Of a stretch of DNA of 44,198 bases, positions 9,201 to 44,196 are shown piece after piece. The position numbers and the translations under genes are program-made. Position 1 is the first letter of the stretch; each line of letters begins with the position of its first letter. Under the pieces are notes generated by a model that saw nothing but the letters and a program-made list of their open reading frames with translations, was not told the DNA's origin and searched no databases. Origin of the DNA: Escherichia phage vB_EcoS-EE09; sequence record OR756193.1. The stretch is one strand, 5' to 3'.

Positions 9201-9703
9201 ACGGCGGCGAATCTGAACTCACGCGGGTCGGCGTTATCCGTATACACAACTATCTTATAGTCGATGCGCCCGCCCACCAGGTCGCCATTATCTTCGTTAG
9301 TGTACAGGGCTGGAATGCCGATGCGAATGCGAACAGCGTCCAGACTGGTATCGTTAATCTGGCGCACCCACGGCGTGCCGTTTTCCAGTTTTACGCCGGC
9401 AGATTGCTCACTTTCCACCGCCGAAAATCCGTGGATCACATCCTGGTGCTGTGTGCCGGGGCGGAACTCCACCCGCGCTCCAGGGAAGTTTTCGGACAGG
9501 TCAGCATTCTGGATCGGCGTTCCGTCCAGATATACACGCTGCCGCAATTCGCTGGCGCTGGTAATACTTTCGAATTCCCCTTCGCCCAGTGCGAGCAAGA
9601 TGCGGATTTTAGCCAGCGAATGCAGGCTATCGGGCGTCTCCTGTGGGGTGTGCTGTTTGCCGCCGCCGCCTTTATGCCCAGTGACGTCGTAGATAATCGT
9701 CAT
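6284..9703 (-). CDS. central tail fibre / host specificity protein, lambda J-like (1139 aa)
   Basis: Size and position after I/K/L/M-like genes; start overlaps the I stop (ATGA). Confidence 0.85.
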   Translation of the reverse strand: MTIIYDVTGHKGGGGKQHTPQETPDSLHSLAKIRILLALGEGEFESITSASELRQRVYLDGTPIQNADLSENFPGARVEFRPGTQHQDVIHGFSAVESEQSAGVKLENGTPWVRQINDTSLDAVRIRIGIPALYTNEDNGDLVGGRIDYKIVVYTDNADPREFRFAAVGKTMSLYERDHRIELPPNVNTGWRVEVHRITADSTSAKVVNDIRVQSITEIIDARLRYPLTALLFVEFDAKAFQNIPRVSIKCKGRKVLIPNNYDPINHTYSGDWDGTFKRAWTDNPAWHWYDICITERFGLGRRIKPQMLNRYALYQIAQRCDQLVSDGNGGREIRFKNDMYIQSQTDAWTVLKDLAAIFAGMTWWGNQMLNIVSDQPVAAVSHTITNASVIDGRFDYASGSQKTRYSTFAVAYGNPKNHYEDAIATGQRVELVRRHKINRLDITAIGCTRESEAQRRGHWALISNQLDQQVSFKVGMEGLFFIPGSVVAIADTNISGGFETRGGRLMSDPGTRTVLNTDSEITFRPGDKFLVRTDSGNVETREIASVNGNKVTLKTALDADPIPDQPFCVDGNDIQLQKFRITDLEYDDSTSTFSVRGIEYNDSKYDAVDNGARLDPGIFTQVPDGVMKGPESVTITPSQISSQGQLITNVDIVFPPVKDAVVYEIQWRRTSLQNMEIQWGNDWVNIPRTASNGAHIPNVFSGNYQARVRAIGMGEISSPWVSSAITPVEGRLGGLNAPIITNAISGLHQILWKWNHNNAATDISYTELEVRKTGETEWKFLSNVPYPGAEYAQTSLEFGIYQQLRARVVDKIGNRSDWSAPFEGQVSDKVDEYMKGLDDEFLTSEDGKRFQEAINTIPQGIYEAMLTDAQQLFNARAEYKGIYAEISVAYNVAADAHKAVAQLETLIGTRLDDAEAAIHTLQTAQSTQEQAFAQYQQTVAAKFGEQEAAIQQVQTATADVAGALAEYKTQVATQFGQQSAAIEQKMTSSFNHAGGSATYSLKAGVTYNGTYYDAGMQLSVVTSGNAVKSRIAFKADQFYIMHPSNGTLSSAFIVDGGAVYIDTARIKNASINFAQITDTLQSNNYDGSTRGWRLGKDGTFINLGTGSGGGMKQTNTRISVKDGNGVLRVQIGELTGSW

Positions 9704-12471: not shown

Positions 12472-15036
12472 TCATCGTTTGTAAAGTACACCACCTGGTT
12501 TAGTCGCTTTCACGATCTCGGACTTCACCGCCTCGGTGATTTGCTTGCCGAACGCCTGCGCGGTACGGACGCCAGACGCGGCAACGCCCAGTTTTCCGTC
12601 TGGCCCGCGCTTCAGTGGCATGATGGCCTCGGGTCCCGCCTCCCCCATCAACCCCGCGCCCTTAGCGAACGCCTGGACGCCATAACTGAAAAAGGTAGGC
12701 TGGCTTACCACTTTCCCCGAATAGGCCGCGAGATTGCCTCCTGCGTACGCTCCGCCGTCCGCATTCTTGGTGAGGCCCGAGAAGATAGCGCCGAACAATC
12801 CGTTTTTGCCGCCGTCGCCACCAAAAGCGCTAACGATCGACTTGAAAGCCTGCGAGGTAGCCAGCTTGATTAATTCGCTCAGGATGGACTTAACCATATC
12901 CTTTGCGTTCAGCTTGCCCGTCTCGAAAAACTCGTTCATCGTGTCTTGCATAGCGCTGAACGTGAATTTTGTGAGCGTCGTCATCTGCGTATATCCGTTA
13001 CCCATATCATCCACACTATCCTTAAGCCCGCGGCTGAAGCCATCCCATAGCGAGGCGTTAGCTCCGGTCTGTGCTTCCTGCACTTCGCGCAGCTTAGACA
13101 CCGCCTTGTCTATATCGGTATCGTTAGCGCCAACCCGCTTCAGGCGATCAATTAGCTGCAATTCTTCGCGCAGGTTTGCCGCTTCGCGAGTGGAAAGCGC
13201 ATACCCCGCGGCGGTGGCTTTTAGTTCGGCGTTCTGGTTCTTAACGAAGGCATCGATCTGCGCGTGCGCCTTAACCTGCTGCTCTTTCGCATCCAGCAAT
13301 TTGGCTTCTTCGACGATCTGCTCGCGGACTTCCTTCACGCGCCCGAACTCGACTAATTGCTGCTTTTCTGCTGCCGTTAGTGCTCTTTCTTTGCTCGCAG
13401 CGATTAACTGCTCATTGTCGGCGATCAGCTTGTTTAAGGCCGCTTGAGCGCGTTGCGTGCGGGTCTGCGTAGACGCGTTGGCTTCGATCTGCTTGCCGGA
13501 TTCTCGAAGCTGGGCCAGTTCGCTCCGTGCGACTTCCAGCATTTTCATACCGGCATCCACGCGAACAGCCGCGGCCTTTTTCGGGGCTGGGTCTTTGTAC
13601 CGCTCGTTTACCTGCTTCACCGCCTCGGCTAGTTCTTTCTCATCAATAACGCCGCGCTTATTCAGCAAATTGAGGCGGGCGATCTCGTCGGCGCGCTTCT
13701 TAGCGTTGGTGGCGTATTCCTTCTCGAACGCGGCGCGGTCACGGGCAGTGCGGTTGGCCTCCTCGTTCGCCTTTGCGGATTCGTCTGCGGCGCGGGCGTT
13801 GTCTCGCTCAGCACGGTTACGCAGGGTTAGCGACGCCACCACTTTTTCCTGGGCGACCAGTTCGCTGTAAAGCATGTTAATACGTGCTTTCTGCGCTTCA
13901 GTCATTACCCCACCGGCAGCGTTTACCGCTTTCATCTCGGCATAGTAAGCCGTGGTCAGCCGCTGCAGTGATTCGCGCGCTTTCATCTCGGATTCATTGG
14001 AGGACTGCGCGCGACCCACATCCAGGATAGCGTCCCACATCGATTTGGCTGCCGATGTGACGACGTTCATCGACCGCTCAAGCGTACCCATGTTCGCCTT
14101 GATCTCATTGGTCATGCTGGTGAACGACGCAGCGGCTGTTTTGTTAGCCAACGCAACTGCGTCTGTCTCACGACCCGCATCAACGAGCGACTGTACCTGC
14201 TGGATCTGCGCTTCGTTTACGACGTGATACTTATCCGCCAGCGCACGCAGTCCGCCAACGGGGTCGGTTGACAGCTTCGCCACCGCCGCTACCACATCCT
14301 CGATCGGCTGGCTTGATACCTTCGCGAAGTCATTCACTACCTTTGCCAATGCGCCGAAGTCACCACCCGCTTTCACACCCGCCGCCGCCAGTGCCTGGAT
14401 TGTGTCACGCGTCTTGCGGAATGACCCGCCCATGCGCTCGGCGTTCTCGGATAACACCAGGATCTGGTTTGCCGTTAGGCCGGAAATATTACCGGAAAGC
14501 GCCAGCGTCTTGTTAAGCGCGGCGACCTGGTTCTCTGCGCGGGACGTAATTGCCACGCCCACGCCTAACGTTGCCGTTACCGCAGCGAGGCCAACCCCTA
14601 CTGGGCCGAGGAAGCCCGCAACATAACGCAGCGTGTTACCCAATCCACCGAACGCCCCAGTTAGCTGCGGTAACTGCTGAAGCATGACGCGGTGAACAGG
14701 CATCCCCATCTCAAGCGTAACTGCGATATCCTGTAACTGGAATGCGGCGTTACGCGAGGCAAAGCCCAGGTTTTTGGTCGACATGCCTAACCTGTTGGCA
14801 AGTCGCTCCTGTTTCGTCATGCCATCGGCGGCGCGCTGCGATTCAGTCGCCAGCTTCTCCATTCCGCCCGCGGCGTCACTCGTCACCTTTTTGGATTTGC
14901 CGAGTGTGTCGTTTAATTTCTTAACCTTGTTTTCTGTGTTCTCGGATTTCTGTGCGAATGAATCAAGCACAGTATTCGCCGTTCTGATTTGTGCAACATC
15001 CGCCTTTAGCGTGATGCCTGCTGCTTGATCTGCCAT
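12472..15036 (-). CDS. tail tape measure protein (854 aa)
   Basis: Long alpha-helical, Ala/Lys/Glu-rich protein with a glycine-rich C-terminal region, upstream of M/L/K/I/J-like genes. Confidence 0.85.
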   Translation of the reverse strand: MADQAAGITLKADVAQIRTANTVLDSFAQKSENTENKVKKLNDTLGKSKKVTSDAAGGMEKLATESQRAADGMTKQERLANRLGMSTKNLGFASRNAAFQLQDIAVTLEMGMPVHRVMLQQLPQLTGAFGGLGNTLRYVAGFLGPVGVGLAAVTATLGVGVAITSRAENQVAALNKTLALSGNISGLTANQILVLSENAERMGGSFRKTRDTIQALAAAGVKAGGDFGALAKVVNDFAKVSSQPIEDVVAAVAKLSTDPVGGLRALADKYHVVNEAQIQQVQSLVDAGRETDAVALANKTAAASFTSMTNEIKANMGTLERSMNVVTSAAKSMWDAILDVGRAQSSNESEMKARESLQRLTTAYYAEMKAVNAAGGVMTEAQKARINMLYSELVAQEKVVASLTLRNRAERDNARAADESAKANEEANRTARDRAAFEKEYATNAKKRADEIARLNLLNKRGVIDEKELAEAVKQVNERYKDPAPKKAAAVRVDAGMKMLEVARSELAQLRESGKQIEANASTQTRTQRAQAALNKLIADNEQLIAASKERALTAAEKQQLVEFGRVKEVREQIVEEAKLLDAKEQQVKAHAQIDAFVKNQNAELKATAAGYALSTREAANLREELQLIDRLKRVGANDTDIDKAVSKLREVQEAQTGANASLWDGFSRGLKDSVDDMGNGYTQMTTLTKFTFSAMQDTMNEFFETGKLNAKDMVKSILSELIKLATSQAFKSIVSAFGGDGGKNGLFGAIFSGLTKNADGGAYAGGNLAAYSGKVVSQPTFFSYGVQAFAKGAGLMGEAGPEAIMPLKRGPDGKLGVAASGVRTAQAFGKQITEAVKSEIVKATKPGGVLYKR

Positions 15037-15094
15037 TATGCAGTCCCCTTTTTTATGCAGTTGCCGGTTGACATTGTATCAGCGAATTTAAAAC

Positions 15095-15420
15095 AAACCT
15101 TATTCAGTCTCAGACGAGGGGGGCCGTTGACCCCCGTCTAGTCTGAAAGACTGGAGTTTGTCCCGCCTGTCCCGATCGGCTGAAAACCGCGGCAGCACTG
15201 GCGGGGACGGGGTGCTGTCCCGCTTTGTCCCGCCCCTGGTCTGTCCCGCTTTCTGTCCCGTTTGGTTTATGCAGATTTCGTGCATAGGTATGCACACTTA
15301 GAGGGTGGGACAAAGCGGGACGTCCCGCCTGTCCCGCTTTGGGTTTATGCAGTGGGAGTGAGTAGATATGCAGTTTTACAGAGGCGGGACAAAACGGGAC
15401 GTCCCGCCTGTCCCGCTTCA
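15095..15420. repeat. non-coding structured element: hairpin plus arrays of GTCCCGC direct and inverted repeats
   Basis: Hairpin AGACGAGGGGGG-ccgttga-CCCCCGTCT, then at least eight GTCCCGC units (for example GGGACAAAGCGGGACGTCCCGCCTGTCCCGC) and recurring TTTATGCA; a diverged second copy lies at about 31670-31800. Confidence 0.7.
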
Positions 15421-16097
15421 TTATGCGGGGTTCTGCTGCGCCATCTCATCAAGCGCGATTCGCTCCATTAGCTTGATATCTTTAAACGCGCGCTGCTCGT
15501 TTTCGATACCGTGCATCTTAAATAACCACTCCAGCACGCCGTAGTCGATGCCGTATGCGCCACCAAAACCGGTGCGCCATTGCGTGGAACAATCTGTGAA
15601 GACTGCGACTACCTTCGCGTTGTCGGGCCATAGCGCAACAGGCGGACAAACATCTTCGGGGGCCGCACCCCATAAACTTGCGGCTAAATCTTCGGAGGGT
15701 GGCGGCGGGCCATAAAAGCGTCGCGCCGCCTCAATTAGTTTTTTTCACGCAACCCCATCAGTTCGAGATAGTACGACGTGTGGAACACACCGAACGCGCG
15801 TGGATAGTTGACCACCAGGCGGCGGACGTTCTCCGCGTTAAATTCGTCCGGCAGATTCCAGCCTTCTGCGACGTGCATGATGGCCTCGACCATAACGTTA
15901 AAGCCGTCCGGGTCATTGTCGTCATATTCCGACAACTTGCGCTCCGTGTCCTGCATGGTCTGCGAAAATTCGTCGATAGGGCGGTGGCGTACTGTAAACG
16001 TCATTTTGCCCGGTTCGTTTTCGCCTGGGCGCGGGATCTCAATCGGCAGCTTAAAGGTAGGCTTAGGGTCAAGTGTGAAAAGTGGTGCTTTAGCCAT
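15421..16097 (-). CDS. tail assembly chaperone GT fusion, made by programmed -1 ribosomal frameshift
   Basis: G frame ends ...CGT GAA AAA AAC TAA; the slippery heptamer A-AAA-AAC (plus-strand T7 run at 15739-15745) opens a -1 frame that stays open for about 105 codons to TAA at 15421-15423 and has no start codon of its own near its 5' end. Confidence 0.7.
15735..16097 (-). CDS. tail assembly chaperone, lambda G-like (120 aa)
   Basis: ORF track trimmed to the ATG with RBS GGAGA 8 nt upstream; sits between major tail and tape measure genes. Confidence 0.75.
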   Translation of the reverse strand: MAKAPLFTLDPKPTFKLPIEIPRPGENEPGKMTFTVRHRPIDEFSQTMQDTERKLSEYDDNDPDGFNVMVEAIMHVAEGWNLPDEFNAENVRRLVVNYPRAFGVFHTSYYLELMGLREKN

Positions 16098-20177: not shown

Positions 20178-20716
20178 TTACTCGTCGCCCATCTTAGCGA
20201 TGATTTCACCGGCCTGTTTCGTTAAGTCAGTGATACCGAAGCTGTGGCCCATAGTGATTTTAGACTTCACATCCTCGACAACCTGCGTCGGTTTGCTCGG
20301 TGCACCACCGGCTGGCGTGCCTGCCAGGACGGATGCAAAATCGGCGTTATTACGGAACTCTTTTTCAAGCTCTTCCATAGTCAGCGCGGACGGTTTGCCA
20401 TCCTGCAGGACACGCACCTTCAAGCTGCCGTCTTCGCCGTCTTCCAGCGTCAGGCGGTCCATAACGTGGCGTTGCATGATCCCGGCATTCTTACCGAATA
20501 GCTTCGACGCCAGGTCTTTGGCAGCGCTTCGGCGCGGCGTTCTGCTTCTGCTTTCTTCTCGCTCACCAGCTTCGCGTTGTTGTCTTTCAGACCCTTGATC
20601 TCCGCCTGTACTTCTTCGGCGGTCATGAACGTTGATTTATACCCGTCACCATCGGCAACAAAAAGCGCCTTCATACCTTCCGGCAACGCGTCATATTCTG
20701 CTTTAGTAAGTTTCAT
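20178..20716 (-). CDS. putative scaffolding protein, split into two overlapping frames
   Basis: Strong RBS AGGGGGA before ATG at 20716 (MKLTKAEYD...); frame A reads through a coiled-coil-like stretch then degenerates and stops at 20450; the -1 frame is open from about 20540 and continues as ...AAKDLASKLFGKNAGIMQRH... to 20178; no slippery site seen. Confidence 0.45.
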
Positions 20717-20805: not shown

Positions 20806-20841
20806 TTGCAATCCGCGTATTGGTTGCATATATTGGTTGCA
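20806..20841 (+). promoter_or_regulatory. candidate sigma70-type promoter with tandem ATTGGTTGCA motifs
   Basis: -35-like TTGCAA, 17-nt spacer containing ATTGGTTGCA, -10-like TATATT, then a second ATTGGTTGCA; 17-nt identity ATTGGTTGCACACCAAC with the reverse-strand motif upstream of the gene starting at 31460. Confidence 0.45.
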
Positions 20842-21628
20842 CACCAACAACGAGGACACAAAAAAGAGACTGACTAAAGACATTAAAAATCAGATTCTGG
20901 CTAACATCCTGCGCGACCACGAAATAGCGACAGAAGCAAAATCAATAATGATGGACTCGCGCGACCTGGCGTACGCCATTACGCTGGACTGTATGCCAGA
21001 AGGCATTCGCACGTTCGCCGAGCTACTCGCGCGCATTGAAGCAATCGGCGATGACCCGTCGCAGATGTACGGCGTCTGTGTATACACCAACAAGGCGACG
21101 TATAGTTATAACACCGACCGCCCGAAAGGCATCGGCAGCGTTTACGACGCCACTTTCGAAATCAACGCAGGCGGAAACGTCCGTACCGTGTCATTGAGCG
21201 GAGACGGATACCGATTCCGAGTACATCGCGGATACTGGGAGTATAAATACATGAATAAACTGTCTCCCGATCTCGGCGATATTGTGCCAGGGTATGAGGA
21301 AATTTTGTTAGCGTCAGTGTGCGAAGTCGACGACGACGGGAAAGCACTGCCGATATATCTCCCACGCGGCCGTGTAGACTACCCGGCGGATCATGATTTC
21401 TGTAAGCGCCTTGACCGTAACGATAAGGCCCGCCGCGATTTGCGAGCTAAGTATGACGCGTTCAAACTAACTGTTACCGGTGTGCTGGATATGCACAATA
21501 CCGATAAGAAGCTGATCAAGGAGTGGCCTGAAGTGGAACAGTTCATTCCTTACCCGGACAAGCCGAAGTCCACGGCGGTGGCGCTGGACGTTAAGACGTT
21601 AAACGAGATTTGCGGTATTCCGCGCTAA
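20837..21628 (+). CDS. hypothetical protein (up to 263 aa) on the opposite strand inside the head module
   Basis: ORF track; start uncertain (track start is a TTG inside the promoter motif; first in-frame ATG near 20947); own promoter-like region upstream and terminator downstream; no motif recognised. Confidence 0.55.
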   Translation: MHTNNEDTKKRLTKDIKNQILANILRDHEIATEAKSIMMDSRDLAYAITLDCMPEGIRTFAELLARIEAIGDDPSQMYGVCVYTNKATYSYNTDRPKGIGSVYDATFEINAGGNVRTVSLSGDGYRFRVHRGYWEYKYMNKLSPDLGDIVPGYEEILLASVCEVDDDGKALPIYLPRGRVDYPADHDFCKRLDRNDKARRDLRAKYDAFKLTVTGVLDMHNTDKKLIKEWPEVEQFIPYPDKPKSTAVALDVKTLNEICGIPR

Positions 21629-31479: not shown

Positions 31480-31530
31480 GGTGTGCAACCAATCTAGCAG
31501 GGTGCCAGGCTGAATGCAACCAATATTAAT
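31480..31530 (-). promoter_or_regulatory. promoter-like region with two ATTGGTTGCA motifs (reverse strand)
   Basis: Two exact copies about 31 bp apart, 25-55 bp upstream of the start at 31460; the proximal copy extends to ATTGGTTGCACACCAAC, identical to the motif at 20832. Confidence 0.45.
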
Positions 31531-31669: not shown

Positions 31670-31800
31670 GGATTTTATTCAGTCTCAGACGAGGGGGGCC
31701 GTTGACCCCCGTCTAGTCTGAAAGACTGGGGTGCTGTCCCGCTTTGTCCCGCCTAGTGTTTGTCCCGCTTTTTGTCCCGTTTGGTTTATGCAATAAAACT
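31670..31800. repeat. second copy of the hairpin plus GTCCCGC-array element
   Basis: TTATTCAGTCTCAGACGAGGGGGGCCGTTGACCCCCGTCTAGTCTGAAAGACTGG...GTCCCGCTTTGTCCCGCC...GTTTGGTTTATGCA matches the copy at about 15095-15285 apart from a roughly 50-bp internal deletion and a few substitutions. Confidence 0.7.
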
Positions 31801-31829
31801 GCATAACTATTCATCTCATCTACACTACA

Positions 31830-31930
31830 CGGCAACCAATACGACCAGATAAAAACACGCAAAATGGCAACCAATACGCGCACAAATTAATCGTCTAGCG
31901 ATATGGGAATTCCCATATCGGCAACCAATG
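31830..31930. repeat. three iteron-like GGCAACCAAT(A/G)CG repeats plus a 22-bp perfect palindrome
   Basis: Direct repeats cGGCAACCAATACGa, tGGCAACCAATACGc, cGGCAACCAATGCGc; palindrome CGATATGGGAATTCCCATATCG at about 31899-31920; AT-rich flank; directly 3' of the primase-helicase gene. Confidence 0.6.
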
Positions 31931-31940
31931 CGCGCAAAAT

Positions 31941-34282
31941 TTAATCTTTCAGGTCATCATCGGTCGCCGAAAGCGTGATGGGTATATTTGTTTTGATGAC
32001 GATATTCGACGACCCATAGATGGCCCCGGTGTGCGGATCTGTATAAAAACCTAGCACGCCGCGATCCACCATATCGTCTATTGCCTTCGTCGATGTGCCA
32101 CCTTTTGCCAATCCCGCCTGGCGGACGATTGCCGATTTACTGAATCCGGTATGGTCCGGGTTATCTTCCATCAGTTTTTCCAGTGCCGCATAAAGCACTT
32201 TCTCTTTTTCGTTGCGCGGCCCCGCGGCATTTTCTTCCTTAACTGCGGCTTTGCCAGCGGCCTTTGCCTGCTCAATAGCGAACGGTGCCAGGGCGACCGG
32301 TACGAGATACAGAGTCTCGTCGCGTGGCGTGGACGCGATCGGCTTGACGTCCCAACCGGCAACCACATCGCCGAAGTCAGGCCCGGTGCTGGTGGACTGG
32401 TGCGATTCGAACGCCTCGGACTTGCGGAGATCCACCTTAACCTTGCACTTGAGCAGGACGAATCCGCGCGGCGCTTGCTTGATGCCGTTACGTGCCTTTT
32501 CGTGATACAGGTTCAATTGGCCTGGTTGATTGTCGTCCGGTTGCTCCAGGAAGAACGCAGAATCAACAGCACCATGCAGCGCGCCGGACCCGCGTGGGGA
32601 TCTGCTGCCGTTTGCACCCTTCGCCGGGTGGTGGATGACGCCCGCACTGCCGCCTGTATTTTCCGCGATGGCCTTCAGCGCCTTGACCACTTCGCCCATA
32701 TCGCTGGCGTTGTTCTCGTCGAACGGTTTAGCATCGGCGGACCGCAGCGCAACAGTCTGGTTGAGTGAGTCGAACGCCACCAGGCCAACCGGTTCGCCGT
32801 TAGCGGTGCGGTTGATAAAGCTGATAACTTCACGCAAGCCGGATTTGCTGGTGATATCCCAGCCGCGAGATTGCAGGTCGATAATGTGCAGCTTGTCCAG
32901 GTCGTGCTCATATTTGATCTGCAATGCTTCCTTACGCTGGTTGGAGGCTTCGCCACCTTCCGCGTCGAAATAGAAGCAATGAGACTGGACGACCTTCGCA
33001 CCACCGAACGGGATCCCCGCGGCAACCGCACCCATTTGGCCCAGCACGTAGAACGATTTACCGATGTTCGATTCGCCAGCCATATACCAGGTCGATTTGA
33101 AGTTGACCAGGCCTTCTATGATCGGGTCGTGCTTACTGAACAGTGCGACCGGTTCGTTATCCAGGTCAGCGTCGGTACATACGCCGTACTCGTCGCCGTC
33201 TCCGACCGCATCAACGATATGCGCATAGCACGATTCCACTTCCTCGTCGTCCAGTCCTGGGAGGATGGCGGCGATTTGCTTACGTGACATGTTGTGCGGT
33301 TCGACGTTCAGGTGGTCCGGGATCCCGATAAGACGTAGCGCCAGGTGCTGGTGTCTGTTCAGTTCCGAGCAACACTCGTTGCCGGTGTGCATACACTTGA
33401 AACGGATCTCGCCATCCTTAACCATGATAGCGGTGGACCCTTCGCCGCTGTGCAGGTGTTCGTTCGGGCATGGCACTTCATAACCACGACCGGACGACAG
33501 CGGTTCGAATCCTGCCTGGAAGCACCAGTCCAGAATTCCGTCCGTTACGCCAGCGTCGCCCTGGGTCAGTTCGCGGCGCACTTCCTCTTTTTCCACTCCC
33601 CGCTTATCAGCCAGGCGGAGCAGACGACGGACGCGGGCGCGCTTGCCATAGTGGCACTTAATAACAGACTGCTGGTGTGGCAGGTACATCAGGCGGTTTG
33701 TGTCTTTCGTGCAGTCGTCGAAGTCCACATCGGACAAACCAAGTTGGTGTAATAGCGCATACTGGACGCGGCCCAGGTCTTCCGCCGGTACAGGCTTGTC
33801 GGTCAACACCAGGAAACGGGCGCAACGCGTGGCGCATACTGGACGCGGCCCAGGTCTTCCGCCGGTACAGGCTTGTCGGTCAACACCAGGAAACGGGCGC
33901 AACGCGTGCCGCCTTTCAGCGGGTGGCGGTCGCCGGTTGTGGTGTGAAATACGTGTTCCAGCCCCGCGTCAATGAACGCCTTACGGCAGCGGCGTAGGGT
34001 GCGGGTGTCGGTACGGTCGATATCAAAGAACAGGATCGAGCGGTCCACCGCACTGGTCTTACGACGCAATCCGTCACTGGTATACGCCACGATGCCATCG
34101 GCCTTACGCTTGCGGCGCGCATACTCGGCTTTATCTTCCGTCTTATTGATATGCACCGAGGAGATTTCTTTCGCATCATTGATAAATTCGAAAAATTCAT
34201 CGGTGGTCATCTGGAAGTTTTCCGCCCTGGCTTTTTCGCCTTTTTTAGCGGGTCTTGTTACAGCGAATTTAATTAAGCTCAT
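31941..34282 (-). pseudogene. DNA primase-helicase (AEP/PrimPol-like N-domain plus P-loop NTPase), frame broken by a 77-bp tandem duplication
   Basis: N-terminal ORF (33803-34282) has the AEP motif LFFDIDR and a conserved His; the C-terminal ORF (31941-33902) has a Cys/His cluster and Walker A GESNIGKS; both contain TRCARFLVLTDKPVPAEDLGRVQYA; removing one 77-bp copy gives a single 2265-nt (754-codon) frame. Confidence 0.7.
33755..33908. repeat. perfect 77-bp tandem direct duplication (two copies)
   Basis: 33755-33831 is identical to 33832-33908 (GCGCATACTGGACGCGGCCCAGGTCTTCCGCCGGTACAGGCTTGTCGGTCAACACCAGGAAACGGGCGCAACGCGTG). Confidence 0.9.
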
Positions 34283-34292
34283 TGCCGTGGCC

Positions 34293-34622
34293 TTACTTAG
34301 AAGTTTTATTATTGCGTACCCAGGAGCGCACTGTGCTCTGATTAATTCCGGTCAACTCGGCAATCATCGCCCAGGATTTGCCCTCGGCGCGCAAACGGAT
34401 AACCTGTTTTTTGTATTCTTCCATTTCTTCATTGTGCTTTTGCAGCTTGCTTGCTGCAGTACCGTTGAGTAATTCCAGCTTCGCGCGCAATTCTTTTTCG
34501 GTAAGTCGCAGACGTTCGATTTCAAATAGCACCGCACCCACGGCATCGGTATACGCCCATGACCGGCTTGTTTCACTGCTAACAGTCTTCGTTAACATTT
34601 CGATTGCGTCGTTTACATTCAT
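34293..34622 (-). CDS. small HTH DNA-binding protein (109 aa), putative regulator
   Basis: Coiled-coil-like N-terminus and C-terminal helix-turn-helix-like KSWAMIAELTGINQSTVRSWV; first gene of the leftward unit. Confidence 0.55.
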   Translation of the reverse strand: MNVNDAIEMLTKTVSSETSRSWAYTDAVGAVLFEIERLRLTEKELRAKLELLNGTAASKLQKHNEEMEEYKKQVIRLRAEGKSWAMIAELTGINQSTVRSWVRNNKTSK

Positions 34623-34828: not shown

Positions 34829-35024
34829 TCACTCCGTCGACAGGATGCAGGACGCAAACTGGAGAGGGGCAACGCAGGGGCCGGATCGAAGTGTCAGGAT
34901 TCCCAACCGTGATTATATAACCTGGTCCACTACCCGAACGGGAGAACGCGCAACCGGGCAATATGTTAAGGCCACCGACGAAGTTAACTGCCGACATCTA
35001 AACTTAACCAATCGGAGATATACC

Positions 35025-35543
35025 ATGTTTGAGCAAATCGTAAACCTGATCACTCGCGGCGTAGTAGCACTGGAAACCATCGCTAAACATTATGAAACCG
35101 TTGGCGCTGCCGTTGGTAAGCAGGAAGACAAGAAGCCGTCTAAGGCCAAAAAAGAAGTTGTCGAAGATGACGACGATGAAGTCGAAGACGAAAAACCGGC
35201 TAAATCTAAAAAAGCCCCGGCGAAAGGTAAATCCAAAAAAGAAGTCGTAGAAGATGACGACGACGAGGATGCCGAAGATGAAAAACCGGCTAAGTCTAAA
35301 AAAGCACCGGCGAAAGGCAAAGGTAAGAAAGATGCCGATCCGCTGGCGGAGATGCGCGACGAAATCAAACAGTATGCCGCGATTATCGCCGGTGGCGATG
35401 ACGACGATGCGAACGACGAATTCGACGACCTGCTGGAATCGTTCGAGATCAAATCAATCGCCAAGCTGGAAGATGACGACGTCGAAGACTTCCACAAAGA
35501 GCTAAAAGAAATCGTCGAAACCTATTTCGAACTGGAAGATTAA
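35025..35543 (+). CDS. highly charged repeat protein (172 aa), first gene of the rightward early operon
   Basis: ORF track trimmed to the ATG with RBS GGAGA 6 nt upstream; two tandem ~29-aa repeats KKEVVEDDDDE..EDEKPAKSKKAPAKGK; strongly acidic C-terminal half. Confidence 0.65.
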   Translation: MFEQIVNLITRGVVALETIAKHYETVGAAVGKQEDKKPSKAKKEVVEDDDDEVEDEKPAKSKKAPAKGKSKKEVVEDDDDEDAEDEKPAKSKKAPAKGKGKKDADPLAEMRDEIKQYAAIIAGGDDDDANDEFDDLLESFEIKSIAKLEDDDVEDFHKELKEIVETYFELED

Positions 35544-37697: not shown

Positions 37698-37787
37698 CCG
37701 CTTAGGCGCAACCAAGTAGATTAGCAACCAAGCCGAACGGGGTGGCTTCCAATAACCCCGATACATGTGAAAATGAGGAATTGGAAA

Positions 37788-38573
37788 ATGGCTAAAGTCA
37801 ACCTGAAAAATGTGCGTGTATGTTTCCTGAAAATTTGGGAACGTGATACCCCTAAACAGGATGGACAAAAACCGGCATACCGTGCCGTGATTCTTCTTGA
37901 TAAAGAAGATCCGCAGGTGGACAAAGTGGAAGCGGCAGCGCGCGCAGTGCTCACCGACAAGCTGAAATCTGAGAAGAATGCCGATAAGTGGATGGACCGC
38001 CACTACGCCCAGGATTCTAAGGAATGCGCAGTTCGTGACGGTGACGAGCGCGACGAAGTAACCGAAGAATTCGAAGGCATGTTGTACATCAACGCTAAAT
38101 CGTTCAAACAGCCAAACATTCAAACGTCACTCGGCGAGAAGCAGACCGAACAGGGTCTGACCGTAGAAGGCGACGAGATCGAAGGCCAGGAGATCTACTC
38201 CGGTTGTTATTGCAACGTGTCCCTTGATATCTGGGCGTGGAACAATACCAACGGCAAGGGACTCGGTGCTGGCTTGCTGGGTTTACGCTTCCGTGATGAC
38301 GGTGAAGCCTTCGGGGGTGGCGGGTCTTCTTGCTCCGATGAAGACCTGGACAACGACGACGAAGACGAAGCACCGCGCAAGTCCAAAAAGTCAAAACGTC
38401 GTGATGACGATGATGAAGATGACAAGCCGCGCAAGTCCAAGAAATCCAAGCGCCGCGATGACGACGACGATGAGGAAGATGAAAAACCTCGCAAACGTCG
38501 TAAGCCACGCGATGACGAAGATGAGGACGACGACGACGAAGACGAAGCGCCACGTAAACGTCGCCGCCGTTAA
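37788..38573 (+). CDS. DUF2815-like putative ssDNA-binding protein with charged repeat tail
   Basis: ORF track trimmed to the ATG with RBS GAGGA 7 nt upstream; MAKVNLKNVRV... N-terminus; C-terminal ~85 aa of tandem PRKSKKSKRRDDDDED-type repeats. Confidence 0.55.
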   Translation: MAKVNLKNVRVCFLKIWERDTPKQDGQKPAYRAVILLDKEDPQVDKVEAAARAVLTDKLKSEKNADKWMDRHYAQDSKECAVRDGDERDEVTEEFEGMLYINAKSFKQPNIQTSLGEKQTEQGLTVEGDEIEGQEIYSGCYCNVSLDIWAWNNTNGKGLGAGLLGLRFRDDGEAFGGGGSSCSDEDLDNDDEDEAPRKSKKSKRRDDDDEDDKPRKSKKSKRRDDDDDEEDEKPRKRRKPRDDEDEDDDDEDEAPRKRRRR

Positions 38574-38802: not shown

Positions 38803-40958
38803 AAGACTTCGAACGTCTGTTTCTCGACACCGAGACATTTAGCGGGGTGGACCTGAAGAAAGTAGGGGCGTACGCCTACGCAGAGCACCCAACCACCGAG
38901 ATTATGATTTGCACCTACGCCATCGACGAAGGCCGCGTGCAGACATGGGATGCCACTGAATCCCCAACAATGCCGCGTGAACTGCGCAAGGCGCTCCGTC
39001 AGGTATCCCGCAAGAAAGCAAAAATCGTGATGGCTAACGGCCTCCTGTTTGACCGCCTGGTTATCCGTGAGAAGTGGGGAATCGACCTGCCGGTAAGCCA
39101 GATCGAAGATACCATGATTATGGCCTTTCGCCACGCGCTGCCGGGTAGTCTCGATATGCAGTGTCAGGTGCTGGGCGTTGACGCAGAGCACGCGAAGGAT
39201 AAGGCCGGCAAGGCGCTGATCAAACGATTCTGTAAGCCTACCCCTAAGACCTACAAAATACGCCGCTACACGCGCGAGACTCACCCTGAAGAATGGGCCA
39301 AATTTCTGCGATATGCCGCTCTTGATATTATCGCGATGCGTGAGGTCTACTGGCGCATACCGGACTGGGGTAATACTCCGAAGGAAGACGAGATACTGCT
39401 TATTGACCAGTTGATCAACGACCGCGGCTTCTATGTGGACGTTGACCTGGCGAACGCCGCGATCAAAGCGGTGCAGGCGCATAAGGAAGAATTGAAGGAG
39501 GAAGCCTGGGAGCGATTTGGCGGTAAGCTGACCGGCAATGACTTCCTGCCAATCCTGCGTGATATCGCCCCAGCGTTCACAATCCACAACGCGCAGAAAT
39601 CCACACTTAACGACCTGCTTGAAGACCCGGACTTCCCCGACGAAGGCAAAGCGCTTATCGAAATGCGCCTCGGTGCGTCATCAACGGCATCGACTAAGTA
39701 CAATCCGCTAGTTAACGGCTTATCCGCAGACGGTCGCCGCCGTGGGTGTCTTCAGTATGGTGGTGCAAAGCGCACGCTGCGCTGGGCCGGTAAAGGCTTC
39801 CAGCCGCAAAACCTGGCACGCGGCGAGTATAGCGACGATCACGAAGGGAAGATTAAGCGCCGCGAAGGCGAGAGCGACGTTGCTTTTTGGGTCCGGTCGC
39901 ACATGCTCACCAACGGCATCAATTCCCTGTTACGCGGGACCGCGCACTGGGCGTATGACATATCTAAGCTAACAGCCTCGACCGTTCGCGGGTGCATTAT
40001 CCCGGCTAAGGGCAAGAAGTTTGTCGTAGCGGACTACTCCAACGTGGAAGGGCGTGGACTTGCCTGGATCGCGGGCGAGAAAACAGCGCTCATGGTGTTT
40101 AAGGCCGGTCGCGATATCTATTGTGAGACTGCCGGTAAGATGTTCGGCCTGGACCCGGACTACATTAAAGCCAACCGCAAGGACTTGCGCCAGATCGGTA
40201 AGGCGTGCGAATTGGGGCTGGGCTATGGTGGCGGCGTCGCGGCGTTCTTGCAGTTCGCTAAAAACCTGGGACTCGACCTTTACACTATGGCGGACGTGAT
40301 GAAAGGCACGTTCCCGGATCACATTTGGGCGGCGGCGAAGCGCGGTTATGAGTACGCCCGCATTAACGAAGCGAAACGCCCACCGAAGCCGGGTAAGAAG
40401 GACGAGCGCCCGACTTACATACTGCCGAAAAACGTATGGCTTACTTGTGACGCGATCAAACGTATGTGGCGTGAGGCTCACCCGAAGACGGTAGCCTTTT
40501 GGGCCGAGCTTGAGGACGCGGTGTTGTGTGCAATCCGCAATCCGGGCAAAGCATACTGGGCTGGTGCGAACGTTCACCCGGACGGTGGCATCGCGCTGTC
40601 TGTCACTACCGAGATCGACGAAGACACCGGCAAGAAGCGCACCAGCACACGCATTAAATATCAGGGCGAGAATCAGACGACGCGCCAGTGGGGCTTCCAG
40701 TATACCTACGGCGGCAAACTGACGGAGAACATCGTACAGGCGTTATGCCGTGATATTCTCGCCTGGTCAATGCCTGGCGTTGAAGCTGCGGGCTATGAAA
40801 TCGTTCTATCGGTGCATGATGAATTGATCACAGAAGTGCCGGACACCGACGACTACACGACCGAGGAGCTTTGCGCGCTGATGTGCGACCTGCCTATTTG
40901 GGCAAAAGGCTTCCCACTTGCCGCGGAAGGCGACATCATGTACAGGTACAGGAAATAA
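38799..40958 (+). CDS. family A DNA polymerase with 3'-5' exonuclease domain (719 aa)
   Basis: Exo I motif LDTETFS near the N-terminus; polymerase motifs R-Q-I-G-K-A-C-E-L-G-L-G-Y-G-G-G (motif B-like) and V-H-D-E-L (motif C). Confidence 0.85.
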   Translation: MKDFERLFLDTETFSGVDLKKVGAYAYAEHPTTEIMICTYAIDEGRVQTWDATESPTMPRELRKALRQVSRKKAKIVMANGLLFDRLVIREKWGIDLPVSQIEDTMIMAFRHALPGSLDMQCQVLGVDAEHAKDKAGKALIKRFCKPTPKTYKIRRYTRETHPEEWAKFLRYAALDIIAMREVYWRIPDWGNTPKEDEILLIDQLINDRGFYVDVDLANAAIKAVQAHKEELKEEAWERFGGKLTGNDFLPILRDIAPAFTIHNAQKSTLNDLLEDPDFPDEGKALIEMRLGASSTASTKYNPLVNGLSADGRRRGCLQYGGAKRTLRWAGKGFQPQNLARGEYSDDHEGKIKRREGESDVAFWVRSHMLTNGINSLLRGTAHWAYDISKLTASTVRGCIIPAKGKKFVVADYSNVEGRGLAWIAGEKTALMVFKAGRDIYCETAGKMFGLDPDYIKANRKDLRQIGKACELGLGYGGGVAAFLQFAKNLGLDLYTMADVMKGTFPDHIWAAAKRGYEYARINEAKRPPKPGKKDERPTYILPKNVWLTCDAIKRMWREAHPKTVAFWAELEDAVLCAIRNPGKAYWAGANVHPDGGIALSVTTEIDEDTGKKRTSTRIKYQGENQTTRQWGFQYTYGGKLTENIVQALCRDILAWSMPGVEAAGYEIVLSVHDELITEVPDTDDYTTEELCALMCDLPIWAKGFPLAAEGDIMYRYRK

Positions 40959-41236
40959 TGACACCAGAAGGCAAGATTCAAAGTCACCTGATGAGACGGG
41001 TGAAAGATGTTGGCGGATTCTGCCGAAAACTGGCATGGGAGGGGCGCGCAGGTGCGCCCGACCTGATTATTATCATCAACGGCAAAATAGTGTTCGTCGA
41101 AGTGAAGCGCCCCGGAGGAAAACCGAAGCCGCACCAGGTACGTGAACATGAGCGAATGGCCCGCCGCGGTGCGGACGTTCGTGTTATCGACAACATAGCC
41201 GACTGCGATTTATTGGTTGCTGAATTGGTCGCGTAG
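40958..41236 (+). CDS. VRR-NUC domain nuclease (92 aa)
   Basis: ORF track trimmed to the ATG overlapping the polymerase stop (TAATG); PD-(D/E)xK core DLIIIINGKIVFVEVK. Confidence 0.6.
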   Translation: MTPEGKIQSHLMRRVKDVGGFCRKLAWEGRAGAPDLIIIINGKIVFVEVKRPGGKPKPHQVREHERMARRGADVRVIDNIADCDLLVAELVA

Positions 41237-44169: not shown

Positions 44170-44196
44170 ATTGGTTGCATAATTAGATTGGTTGCA
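44170..44196 (+). promoter_or_regulatory. tandem ATTGGTTGCA motifs at the right edge of the window
   Basis: Two exact copies 17 bp apart immediately after the stop of the last gene, same tandem arrangement as at 20819-20841. Confidence 0.5.

Follow-up and report, generated by a model that had tools for sequence, protein, structure and literature searches.

The window analysed here, the whole 44,198-nucleotide stretch of Escherichia phage vB_EcoS-EE09 (OR756193.1), is the genome of a Dhillonvirus (HK578-like). In its tail gene block the T-frame ORF, a DUF1799-type extension of the tail chaperone, lies on the minus strand with its stop codon at 15421–15423, and the 854-aa tape measure ORF begins at 15036. 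The spacer between them therefore occupies positions 15037–15420 and measures 384 bp, in good agreement with the roughly 385 bp that a first-pass annotation, made from the letters of the sequence, had placed between GT and the tape measure gene. That annotation had missed that the genes around the spacer are all encoded on the minus strand. The boundaries of the whole non-coding spacer, to which no strand is assigned and which is hereafter called region A, were taken from the flanking ORFs. In the GenBank record of the Sodalis phage SO-1 (GQ502199, 2009), repeat_region features named "region A" and "region B" correspond to the same two loci that are described below, and the record mentions direct, inverted and palindromic repeats as well as similarity between the two regions. 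It is an annotation note only, tentative in its closing "possible", with no motif definition, link to other phages or test, and a description of these repeats was not found in the literature on Dhillonvirus, HK578, SO-1 and EP23.

Region A is non-coding. A 103-aa ORF is present on the minus strand at 15110–15421, but it was rejected as a real gene because, in an alignment of 6 genomes, variable columns are distributed evenly over the three codon positions (41/38/37%), 26 columns contain gaps, and EP23 and KarlBarth have an interrupted frame. The lack of a coding signature in this frame across the 6 genomes bears out the earlier statement that the spacer holds no credible ORF, and the "hypothetical proteins" annotated within it in many GenBank records are probably spurious, which calls for caution from annotators. 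Region A was matched in 158 phage records at 80–95% identity, with at least 80% of the spacer covered in 151 of the 158, and is retained across about 150 Dhillonviruses. Two outcomes had been named that would speak against a genuine non-coding element, namely an ordinary ORF-bearing segment in relatives or repeats confined to this phage; in the relatives the spacer is kept at the same GT/tape-measure junction in these 151 records, the repeats are kept with it and no ORF is. The search for the array outside this genome, which had also been suggested, found the region in related phages and gave zero matches to it in 5,426 E. coli genomes and 72,556 plasmids.

The dominant feature of region A is a set of about 15 CGGGAC/GTCCCG sites in both orientations (counted on a GGGAC/GTCCC core with flanking CG), with neighbouring sites 9–12 bp apart. 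The window contains 19 exact copies of the heptamer GTCCCGC, where 9.0 ± 2.9 are expected; 0 of 100 shuffles gave as many, and 10 of the 19 copies fall within 15160–15416, so that the initial report of at least eight units in direct and inverted arrangement holds. The positions of the ~15 sites are conserved across the 6 genomes; the alignment shows drift in the spacers that separate the copies but conservation of the heptamer itself. Read on the gene strand, the consensus site is RRGCGGGACA, of which CGGGAC(A) is invariant. Region A thus displays the short word repeated at approximately helical periodicity that characterizes iterons, and the conservation of the heptamer amid drifting spacers, together with the regular distance between adjacent sites, fits the first-pass idea of multiple binding sites for a sequence-specific protein.

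Repeat analysis resolved these sites into several blocks. Palindromic four-site block 1, composed of GCGGGACAAAACGGGAC joined to GTCCCGCCTGTCCCGC with two sites facing two, lies at 15384–15416, and block 2, composed of GGGACAAAGCGGGAC joined to GTCCCGCCTGTCCCGC, lies at 15307–15337. Both blocks fold stably as single-stranded DNA (−13.9 kcal/mol, z = −4.5 for block 1; −13.2 kcal/mol, z = −3.2 for block 2). They are about 79 bp apart and define two tandem ~79-bp units, with a 79% self-match at a 79-bp offset; this internal periodicity had escaped the first pass. A 31-mer then quoted as occurring twice is exact at 15307–15337 as stated, but its second copy at 15386–15416 carries one mismatch, and likewise the palindrome GCGGGACGTCCCGC is exact at 15315–15328 and has one mismatch at 15394–15407. 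Closer to the tape measure gene, four direct TGTCCCG sites (15216–15260, starting at 15216, 15226, 15242 and 15254) form part of a core module common to region B, the direct-site segment being 91% identical to 31728–31792. Two more direct sites (15159 and 15168) and a degenerate inverted site, GCGGGGAC (15201–15208), make up the segment 15159–15208; this segment of ~52 bp is found in region B of other Dhillonviruses and is deleted from region B here.

The GC hairpin noted in the first pass is a 26-nt sequence, GACGAGGGGGGCCGTTGACCCCCGTC, at 15113–15138, and a second exact copy is located at 31688–31713. It is the stem-loop core of a hairpin module (15105–15153) with flanking AGTCT/AGACT arms, and over 58 nt this module is 98% identical to 31675–31732. 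Folding energies of −14.1 and −13.4 kcal/mol were obtained for the module (z-scores −3.8 and −3.3), which folds well on either strand and is nearly invariant in the 6 genomes, its stem lacking compensatory changes and being conserved as sequence. Neither strand has a T-run after the hairpin, and a terminator scan passed it over, picking out within the region just a weak stem in four-site block 1; the hairpin therefore does not qualify as an intrinsic terminator. The sequences said to trail the arrays are also real: GGTTTATGCA comes after the arrays at 15264 and at 15342, with a further copy at 31783 in region B. Motifs of the TTATGCAG / TATGCA type at 15267, 15289, 15345 and 15366 (15267–15372) are paired 21–22 bp apart, one pair per 79-bp unit, and the window has 12 copies of TTATGCA where 4.7 are expected. 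One sequence, GTATGCACA (15288–15296), resembles a DnaA box, with 8 of 9 positions matching TTATNCACA, and is partly conserved in the 6 genomes, but the recurrent motif TTATGCAG differs from the consensus DnaA box. On inspection by eye, DnaA-box and sigma-54 readings of individual motifs were unconvincing.

Inspection of the 6-genome alignment of region A identified no clear A+T-rich unwinding element, and the stretch from the hairpin to the tape measure ATG was judged by eye to be moderately A+T-rich. This stretch includes an extended −10-like element, TGATACAAT (15073–15081, minus strand), read from the sequence and lying ~37 bp upstream of the tape measure ATG. It is embedded in ATTGTATCAG, which is invariant in the 6 genomes; the first pass had not noticed this conserved element. 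The element has no −35 element, which is why a simple promoter scan did not call it. Promoter and terminator consensus scans of both loci gave matches no commoner than in shuffled sequence. At gathering thresholds Rfam returned zero matches for the whole window, and a permissive search of the region yielded sub-threshold microRNA-hairpin noise; ARAGORN found no tRNA or tmRNA in the window.

A second copy of the core module, overlooked in the first pass, is present at the other locus. The region B core (31675–31806 by repeat analysis; "region B" in the SO-1 record) contains the hairpin, four direct TGTCCCG sites at 31735–31779 and the palindrome TTATGCA-N7-TGCATAA, and it lies where early genes give way to late ones, with the primase-helicase gene on one side and the lysis/structural block on the other. 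In Dhillonviruses the core common to the two regions is about 175 bp long and runs from a TTATGCA motif through four direct sites, one inverted site and two direct sites to the hairpin; the region B copy here is shortened to ~120 bp (31675–31795). Across genomes, module copies are 87–97% identical between regions A, 82–98% between regions B and 80–95% between A and B. Concerted evolution between the two regions was rejected because the copies cluster by locus, A with A and B with B. Regions A and B are thus separately conserved orthologous lineages, and therefore both have been under selection since before the genus radiated.

Dense GTCCCG arrays are also present in many IMG/VR contigs that have no DNA similarity to this phage. 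An exact-pattern scan gave 120 loci, of which 52 had at least 6 sites per 300 bp and 68 served as low-density controls; the array-bearing phages span G+C contents from 38 to 72%. An AAA_25 (RepA-like) primase-helicase is encoded beside the array at 28 of the 52 dense loci vs. 1 of the 68 low-density loci, and for about 20 of the loci checked the stop codon of the AAA_25 gene and the start of the array are no more than ~60 bp apart. A gene for an O/DnaD-like initiator was found at 15 of the 52 dense loci, with the CGGGACA array inside the gene in 9 of 9 inspected, and such in-gene arrays encode a linker of the form SGTAAGQQRD (at least 9 IMG/VR loci inspected). At one locus, L112, a GTCCCG array lies 23 bp after a P4-type Toprim-D5 primase. 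The primase domains found beside arrays are not of one kind but fall into unrelated classes (Toprim, AEP prim-pol, others). When all window proteins were searched against the loci, only the primase-helicase was repeatedly found beside arrays. Among the roles listed in the first-pass annotation, this adjacency of the motif arrays to initiator or helicase genes in unrelated phages, or their location inside them, favours that of an origin.

Relatives show how motif, protein and layout vary. The primase-helicase of eiAU-183 is 47% identical to that of the window, its C-terminal 110 aa do not align, and TCGCCCCG-type repeats with a similar GC hairpin occur both after the primase-helicase gene and in the GT-to-tape-measure spacer. 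Tsm2, L141, L142 and L143 each have a different repeated word just past the gene and a different C-terminal domain; L140 has a Dhillon-like C-terminus and keeps GCGGGACA. The layout is thus kept where the motif differs. The covariation of motif and C-terminus is confounded by phylogeny, and along the same lineages the gene for the small HTH protein upstream also switches type, from HTH_23 in Dhillonvirus and L140 to HTH_3 in the others.

The primase-helicase gene (31941–34282, minus strand; phrog_3228), which encodes the candidate array binder, is split in the window by a 77-bp tandem duplication at 33755–33908. Its predicted domains are an N-terminal region that is probably an AEP-type primase, as judged from the DxD motif and Cys/His cluster in its sequence, an AAA_25 helicase (E = 6e-19) and a C-terminal winged helix. 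Pfam detected AAA_25 alone, and the sole PDB sequence match was a weak one to the RSF1010 RepA helicase (E = 0.46). The model of the C-terminal domain has a pLDDT of 82–90 and matches winged-helix folds; Foldseek paired it with MarR/MepR–DNA complexes and the ORC winged helix at a probability of 0.96–0.99 but with E = 0.01–0.3. A C-terminal domain with a KKKAFxRA motif is common to 21 array-linked helicases. Since the Dhillonvirus C-terminal domain showed no significant similarity to the C-termini of the array-linked helicases (hhalign probability 8%; blastp), the CGGGACA motif may be read by a different domain in Dhillonvirus. HMMs built from array-linked proteins and run against the six-frame translation of the window returned E ≥ 1 for both the KKKAFxRA C-terminal domain and a stand-alone O-like initiator. 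Upstream of the primase-helicase gene, at the head of the same operon, is the gene for a 109-aa HTH_23 / sigma-70 region-4-like protein (34293–34622, minus strand).

Based on these comparisons, we hypothesize with moderate confidence that region A is an iteron array for the phage initiator, functioning as a second origin or as a replication element similar to crr of P4. A ~175-bp core is common to regions A and B, and region B lies just past the primase-helicase gene; the phage would therefore possess two initiator-binding loci, one (region B) starting ~135 bp downstream of the primase-helicase stop codon and the other (region A), with more sites, 16.5 kb from that gene; the distance and the larger number of sites in region A weigh against the proposal. 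We infer which Dhillonvirus protein would bind, that its binding would lead to initiation, and which locus would fire. The initiator would be the 754-aa primase-helicase, whose C-terminal winged helix, as modelled, may bind the arrays by contacting RRGCGGGACA. It would fill sites spaced about one helical turn apart, over the direct runs and both palindromic four-site blocks, and the resulting nucleoprotein complex would distort the DNA, allowing the hairpin-forming, A+T-richer DNA beside the tape measure promoter to open and the helicase ring to load. The enzyme's own primase domain could then prime synthesis for the PolA-type polymerase of the phage. Region A would serve either as a second origin or as a cis-acting replication enhancer analogous to P4 crr. 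GC and AT skew (minimum 34835, maximum 3113) mirrors gene orientation, which makes it uninformative on the origin. Neither a described replication origin for Dhillonviruses nor an experiment tying these sites to replication in any Dhillonvirus was found in the literature, in which a preprint on OLD defence, cited below, was the one relevant paper.

The closest parallel is the satellite phage P4, in which ori and crr, the latter with tandem 120 bp units, are bound by the alpha primase-helicase. As in P4, an octamer-class repeat in direct and inverted orientation is present at two separated loci, one of them beside the primase-helicase gene and one built of tandem units (here two of ~79 bp), and the proposed binder is the C-terminal winged helix of a multifunctional primase-helicase. 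The two systems differ in the enzyme, P4 alpha having Toprim, D5_N and an SF3 helicase whereas the Dhillonvirus protein, for which Pfam gives AAA_25 only, would combine a probable AEP-like primase region with an AAA_25 (RepA-like) helicase; homology to alpha was thus not detected. They differ also in the motif (GCGGGACA here, TGTTCACC in P4), and the Dhillonvirus loci are 16.5 kb apart, the distant one inside the tail gene block. The lambda ori, which sits inside gene O, shares short, internally symmetric repeats with the Dhillonvirus arrays, and the lambda and O-like/DnaD-like initiators are winged-helix binders; in contrast, Dhillonvirus lacks an O-like gene (hmmsearch, six-frame, E > 1) and its arrays are intergenic. 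In the rep-ori modules of SaPI/PICI and iteron plasmids (PIME repA-oriV; RSF1010) the origin likewise sits directly 3' of the gene for the initiator or helicase, with iterons adjoining a hairpin or A+T-rich DNA, and AAA_25 is the family of the RSF1010 RepA helicase. Unlike Dhillonvirus, these modules have a single locus and separate initiators such as RepC or Rep; we know of no second distant array in them. It is hard to see what role handcuffing, or other copy-control logic of plasmids, would have in a lytic phage.

The main rival to an initiator-binding function is control of late transcription, and the two may coexist because a conserved extended −10 is found just upstream of the tape measure gene; this element and the early/late-boundary position of region B fit a transcriptional role too. 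Here the arrays would be operator or activator sites of a transcription regulator, e.g. the 109-aa HTH_23 protein, that boosts late transcription, acting at the early/late boundary through region B and again before the tape measure and distal tail genes through region A. We regard this as tentative and rather unlikely. It draws on the placement of region B between the primase-helicase gene and the lysis/structural block, on the invariance of TGATACAAT in region A, on the HTH gene heading the primase-helicase operon, and on the occurrence of the HTH_23 type in exactly those relatives that keep GCGGGACA (Dhillonvirus and L140). In unrelated phages, however, the arrays are tied to helicase or initiator genes and not to late operons, and no homologue of the small HTH protein was found near the array loci; moreover, the sites lie upstream of a strong hairpin at no fixed distance from a −10 element, and no −35/−10 pair was detected within the arrays. 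An element acting at the RNA level, with the hairpin as a terminator, attenuator or processive antiterminator (HK022 put-like) setting the chaperone:tape-measure ratio and the repeats incidental, is very unlikely. In its favour, the 58-nt module hardly varies, is found at two places in the genome and folds well whichever strand is considered, and the spacer of one GenBank record carries a predicted terminator. However, the missing T-run on either strand, the absence of a hairpin call in the terminator scan or of an Rfam family at threshold, and a stem conserved as sequence with no compensatory changes all argue against it, and the 15 oriented heptamers and the initiator-gene link elsewhere would be left unexplained.

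The primase of T7, gp4, uses 5'-GTC-3' as its priming site, at sites such as TTGTC. By analogy, the heptamers could be clustered single-stranded priming sites for a primase rather than duplex sites for an initiator, considering that the motif contains GTC, that many copies read TTGTC or CTGTC, and that the arrays abut primase-helicase genes. This is most improbable, given that the adjoining primase domains are of unrelated classes, that arrays also occur inside O-like initiator genes with no primase, and that the invariant CGGGAC(A) exceeds the known primase trinucleotide sites in length. The first-pass annotation had further suggested a packaging (pac/cos) site or a small mobile or selfish insertion, and neither is supported; we give this pair almost no credence. 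The Dhillonvirus records Kente and CHD5UKE2 begin or end inside region A, and the eiAU-183 record was opened inside its equivalent spacer, yet these breakpoints coincide with the A/B repeat boundary and the hairpin, as would be expected of assembly breaks. Packaging is made less likely by the terminase in a 69%-identical relative, which is of the P22/Sf6 headful type, and by the second copy of the element beside the primase-helicase gene. Against mobility stand its fixation at one site in 151 of 158 records, the lack of inverted termini or target duplication, the zero copies in E. coli chromosomes and plasmids, and the absence of recent copying between the A and B modules, which are old orthologues; the hallmarks of a miniature mobile element (MITE or REP-like) are therefore missing. 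A parS/centromere reading, to which the GGGACC core of F and N15 sopC had pointed, was abandoned, as the phages are lytic and no ParB appeared among the annotations inspected.

If region A is indeed an iteron array for the primase-helicase, the start of Dhillonvirus replication becomes testable at two predicted initiator-binding loci with an 8–10-bp site, and so does the possibility that an AAA_25 primase-helicase acts as an initiator that loads itself, binding to the origin via its C-terminal winged helix. A more far-reaching proposal, doubtful in our estimate, is that CGGGACA is a widely shared iteron word read by winged-helix modules that have become attached, by shuffling, to unrelated initiators of at least three types (O/DnaD-like, AAA_25 primase-helicase and P4-type primase), and that Dhillonvirus and Eiauvirus keep a second, larger initiator-binding array in the tail operon, perhaps with further roles. 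This second array could couple replication or initiator occupancy to the expression of the tape measure and distal tail genes, or could be a hairpin-forming structure detected by defence sensors such as OLD or Lamassu. In HK578, the mutations that allow escape from OLD defence fall in the helicase-primase gene and in its promoter, and origin-iteron hairpins were proposed by the authors as the OLD trigger (bioRxiv 10.64898/2026.07.10.737580); together with the stable single-strand folding of the four-site blocks, this also speaks for the main reading of region A as an iteron array. The four-site blocks of region A can accordingly be tested as trigger hairpins of the proposed OLD type, in a genus whose members (HK578, BASEL phages Bas14-17) are standard test phages in anti-phage defence work. 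Beyond the genus, the link between the heptamer and initiator genes across unrelated phages provides a simple signature for locating origins in uncultivated phage contigs.

Gene order was taken from annotated relatives. In the window, the minus strand carries the structural and lysis block, read from ~31.5 kb to 3.1 kb, and upstream of it the primase-helicase gene and a small HTH gene (31941–34622); the other replication genes occupy the plus strand from 34845. The T frame of the tail chaperone (a DUF1799-type extension) ends at 15421–15423 and the tape measure gene (854 aa) starts at 15036, so that the spacer between them, region A, spans 15037–15420 (384 bp). The window contains 19 exact copies of GTCCCGC, where 9.0 ± 2.9 would be expected, and 10 of these copies fall in 15160–15416. 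Counted by the GGGAC core, region A holds ~15 sites with the gene-strand consensus RRGCGGGACA, arranged as two palindromic four-site blocks (15384–15416 and 15307–15337), a direct run of four (15216–15260), two further direct sites (15159–15174) and one degenerate inverted site. Two tandem units of ~79 bp make up the upper part of the spacer, each array is followed by TTATGCA(G), and a 26-nt GC hairpin (15113–15138) lies within a conserved 58-nt module. The description in the first-pass annotation proved accurate on checking; the 31-mer that it quoted as present twice does recur, but its second copy has one mismatch. TTATGCA(G) itself is found 12 times in the window (4.7 expected), with copies at 15036–15059, 15267–15372 and 31786–31806; one pair, 21–22 bp apart, lies in each ~79-bp unit, two copies bracket the ribosome-binding site and ATG of the tape measure gene, and one copy, GTATGCACA, is DnaA box-like.

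A minus-strand ORF of 103 aa (15110–15421) has a start codon overlapping the T stop codon (TAATG), and small ORFs are annotated in the spacer in several GenBank records. We rejected the 103-aa ORF as a gene because an alignment of the spacer from six genomes contained 26 gap columns, with 1-nt and 10-nt indels among them, the frame was disrupted in EP23 and KarlBarth, and variable columns were spread evenly over the codon positions (41/38/37%). The alignment thus bears out the earlier impression that the spacer has no credible ORF. Conservation among the six genomes falls on the heptamers, the TTATGCA motifs, the hairpin module and ATTGTATCAG, a stretch that reads TGATACAAT on the gene strand, an extended −10-like element ~37 bp before the ATG of the tape measure gene. 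A 389-bp query around region A matched 158 phage records at 80–95% identity, almost throughout Dhillonvirus (HK578-like E. coli siphophages), with at least 80% of the query covered in 151 of them.

Second copies of the core elements lie at 31675–31795 (region B), ~135 bp 3′ of the primase-helicase stop codon, where the hairpin module (58 nt) is 98% and the four-site run with GGTTTATGCA (65 nt) 91% identical to the region A copy; in other Dhillonviruses the module common to A and B is contiguous over ~175 bp. Across genomes, module identity is 87–97% for A–A, 82–98% for B–B and 80–95% for A–B comparisons, and the closer A–A and B–B resemblance indicates that the duplication is old and that each copy has been maintained independently. 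The raw observation is not new, since the SO-1 GenBank record of 2009 marks both loci as mutually similar repeats, 'region A' and 'region B'; our literature search found no paper discussing these repeats. The window's own region B lacks a ~52-bp segment (31728–31735 against 38939–39112 of the compared genome L003; two direct sites and one inverted) that is kept in the other Dhillonviruses examined, and it contains a TTATGCA-N7-TGCATAA palindrome.

Another dispersed word, the 9-mer ATTGGTTGC/GCAACCAAT, has 24 matches with one mismatch allowed (11.6 expected), at 1894–1913, 4969, 20819–20840, 30775, 31485–31524, 31606, 31832–31929, 34813, 41212–41232 and 44170–44195. The copies are intergenic almost throughout, frequently paired 12–17 bp apart and dense on either side of region B; lineage variants are GCAACCAAC in eiAU-183 and GCGGCCAAC and GCTGCCAAC in the compared genomes L142 and L143, respectively, and the 9-mer is probably a promoter or regulator motif. 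Two ATTGGTTGC copies precede a plus-strand ORF of 263 aa (20837–21628) within the minus-strand late block, a position at which relatives have an annotated opposite-strand hypothetical gene or a gene labelled 'DNA polymerase III beta subunit', with a note that it could be a moron. Low-complexity acidic/basic tandem repeats (GAAGATGACGACGA-type; 90-bp and 54-bp units) occur at 34845–35543 and 37767–38573, in two early genes that encode a protein of unknown function and a putative single-stranded-DNA-binding protein.

An exact-pattern scan of IMG/VR with TGTCCCGC-N1-4-TGTCCCG returned at least 120 loci. Among the matches listed, which have a G+C of 0.38–0.72 and, except for three Dhillonvirus pieces, no DNA similarity to the window, many carry 7–18 GTCCCG/CGGGAC sites within 400 bp, both direct and inverted, and often with a GC palindrome such as GGGACACCCCTTAGGGGTGTCCC flanked by sites. 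When all window proteins were compared with these matches, only the primase-helicase recurred, at 20 or more non-close loci and with 21–38% identity over the AAA_25 region; in about 20 helicase loci the array starts no more than ~60 bp from where the helicase gene stops. By HMM, an AAA_25 helicase was present at 28 of the 52 listed loci with at least six sites per 300 bp, against 1 of 68 low-density loci. A further 15 listed loci encode an O/DnaD-like initiator (phrog_35955, 2514, 270), and in all nine inspected the array lies within the gene, encoding a linker of the form SGTAAGQQRD, just as lambda ori lies within gene O; at one listed locus the array starts 23 bp after a P4-type Toprim-D5_N primase. 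The AAA_25 helicases are fused to various primase domains (Toprim, AEP and others) and have varying upstream neighbours, so that what stays constant alongside the motif is the initiator/helicase itself. Of the array-linked helicases, 21 among the matches listed share a C-terminal domain with WR..FY...KKKAFxRA...L...V.

Full-length primase-helicase homologues (45–53% identical) from Eiauvirus, Guernseyvirinae and related metagenomic phages all have a non-coding gap of 350–900 bp 3′ of the gene, containing different repeated words: TCGCCCCG-type repeats with a similar GC hairpin in eiAU-183, TTGCGA(G) words in the genomes L141 and L142, and GGGGATC inverted pairs in L143. The eiAU-183 motif block is repeated in that phage's own GT–tape measure spacer (52 nt, 88% identical to the block after the primase-helicase, E = 1.6e-12). 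In Serratia phage Tsm2, six exact TGTGCGGAA copies occur at two loci only (9590–9649 and 20382–20411), four in alternating orientation from 23 bp past the primase-helicase stop codon and an exact inverted pair 10.8 kb away, between a tail gene and a spanin gene. The second loci of eiAU-183 and Tsm2 imply that the two-locus design outlives the motif. The C-terminal ~100 aa of the motif-changed relatives differ correspondingly, while L140 (69% identical, with a Dhillon-like C-terminus) retains GCGGGACA and the same hairpin. This fits a site specificity carried by the initiator C-terminus. Phylogeny confounds the argument, since the small HTH gene upstream switches type in these lineages too.

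The candidate binder is the window's primase-helicase, 754 aa long once one copy of a perfect 77-bp tandem duplication (33755–33908) is taken out. Because its length is not divisible by three, the duplication splits the protein, unsplit in relatives, into minus-strand ORFs at 33803–34282 and 31941–33902; it may have arisen in assembly or be a genuine mutation of a replication gene. The N-terminal third, with its DxD motif and Cys/His cluster, is read as an AEP-like primase; an AAA_25 domain (aa 357–531, E = 6e-19) and a C-terminal domain follow. In an AlphaFold2 model of the last 159 aa, a three-helix, two-strand unit was predicted with confidence (pLDDT 82–90), and its Foldseek matches were all winged-helix DNA binders (MarR and MepR-DNA complexes, ORC winged helix, histone H1), with probabilities of 0.96–0.99 but weak E-values of 0.01–0.3. 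Homology of the Dhillonvirus C-terminus could be shown neither to the KKKAFxRA domain nor to the winged helix of the O-like proteins, and binding of GCGGGACA by this protein is accordingly something we infer.

Several rival roles were considered for the spacer. The arrays could be late-transcription operators for the small HTH protein, the strongest of the rivals, though we consider it unlikely: it would leave unexplained why other phages have the arrays at initiator genes, and at the loci searched among the matches listed no homologue of the HTH protein sits beside the arrays. For a terminator or RNA element, the hairpin is without T-run, covariation or Rfam match. A small mobile or selfish element is contradicted by fixation of the spacer at one site, its absence from E. 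coli genomes and plasmids and the age of the duplication. A packaging site has in its favour solely that two records are broken within region A at a repeat boundary, and conflicts with the P22/Sf6-type terminase of a close relative. Deposited genomes opened or broken within region A or its equivalent include OX460974 (ends), MZ234029 (start) and eiAU-183 (start), with breaks at the hairpin or the A/B repeat boundary, which looks like assembly breakage at a repeat.

Judged on sequence, the repeat anatomy and the association with initiator genes support classing these loci as probable iteron origins bound by a phage initiator. Initiator molecules would fill sites about one helical turn apart, and the four-site palindromes and hairpin module (−13 to −14 kcal/mol as single-stranded DNA, z −3.2 to −4.5) could extrude, or fold after melting; the helicase would then load, and its own primase would begin synthesis. 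Region B adjoins the gene and would hold the canonical origin position; region A would serve as a second origin or as an enhancer of the crr type. The conserved −10 in the latter raises the possibility that initiation is coupled to transcription at that locus, as occurs at several known phage origins. In how they would work, the two regions come closest to P4 ori/crr and its alpha primase-helicase, then to lambda ori/O and to rep-ori modules from satellites and iteron plasmids; the Dhillonvirus system is not of the P4 family, because its helicase is AAA_25 and not D5/SF3.

HK578 mutants that escape OLD map to the helicase-primase and its promoter, and OLD has been proposed to sense hairpins at origin iterons, in a study that did not locate the HK578 origin (bioRxiv 10.64898/2026.07.10.737580). 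The window's 77-bp duplication sits in the same gene as these escape mutations. Regions A and B are obvious candidates for the HK578 origin.
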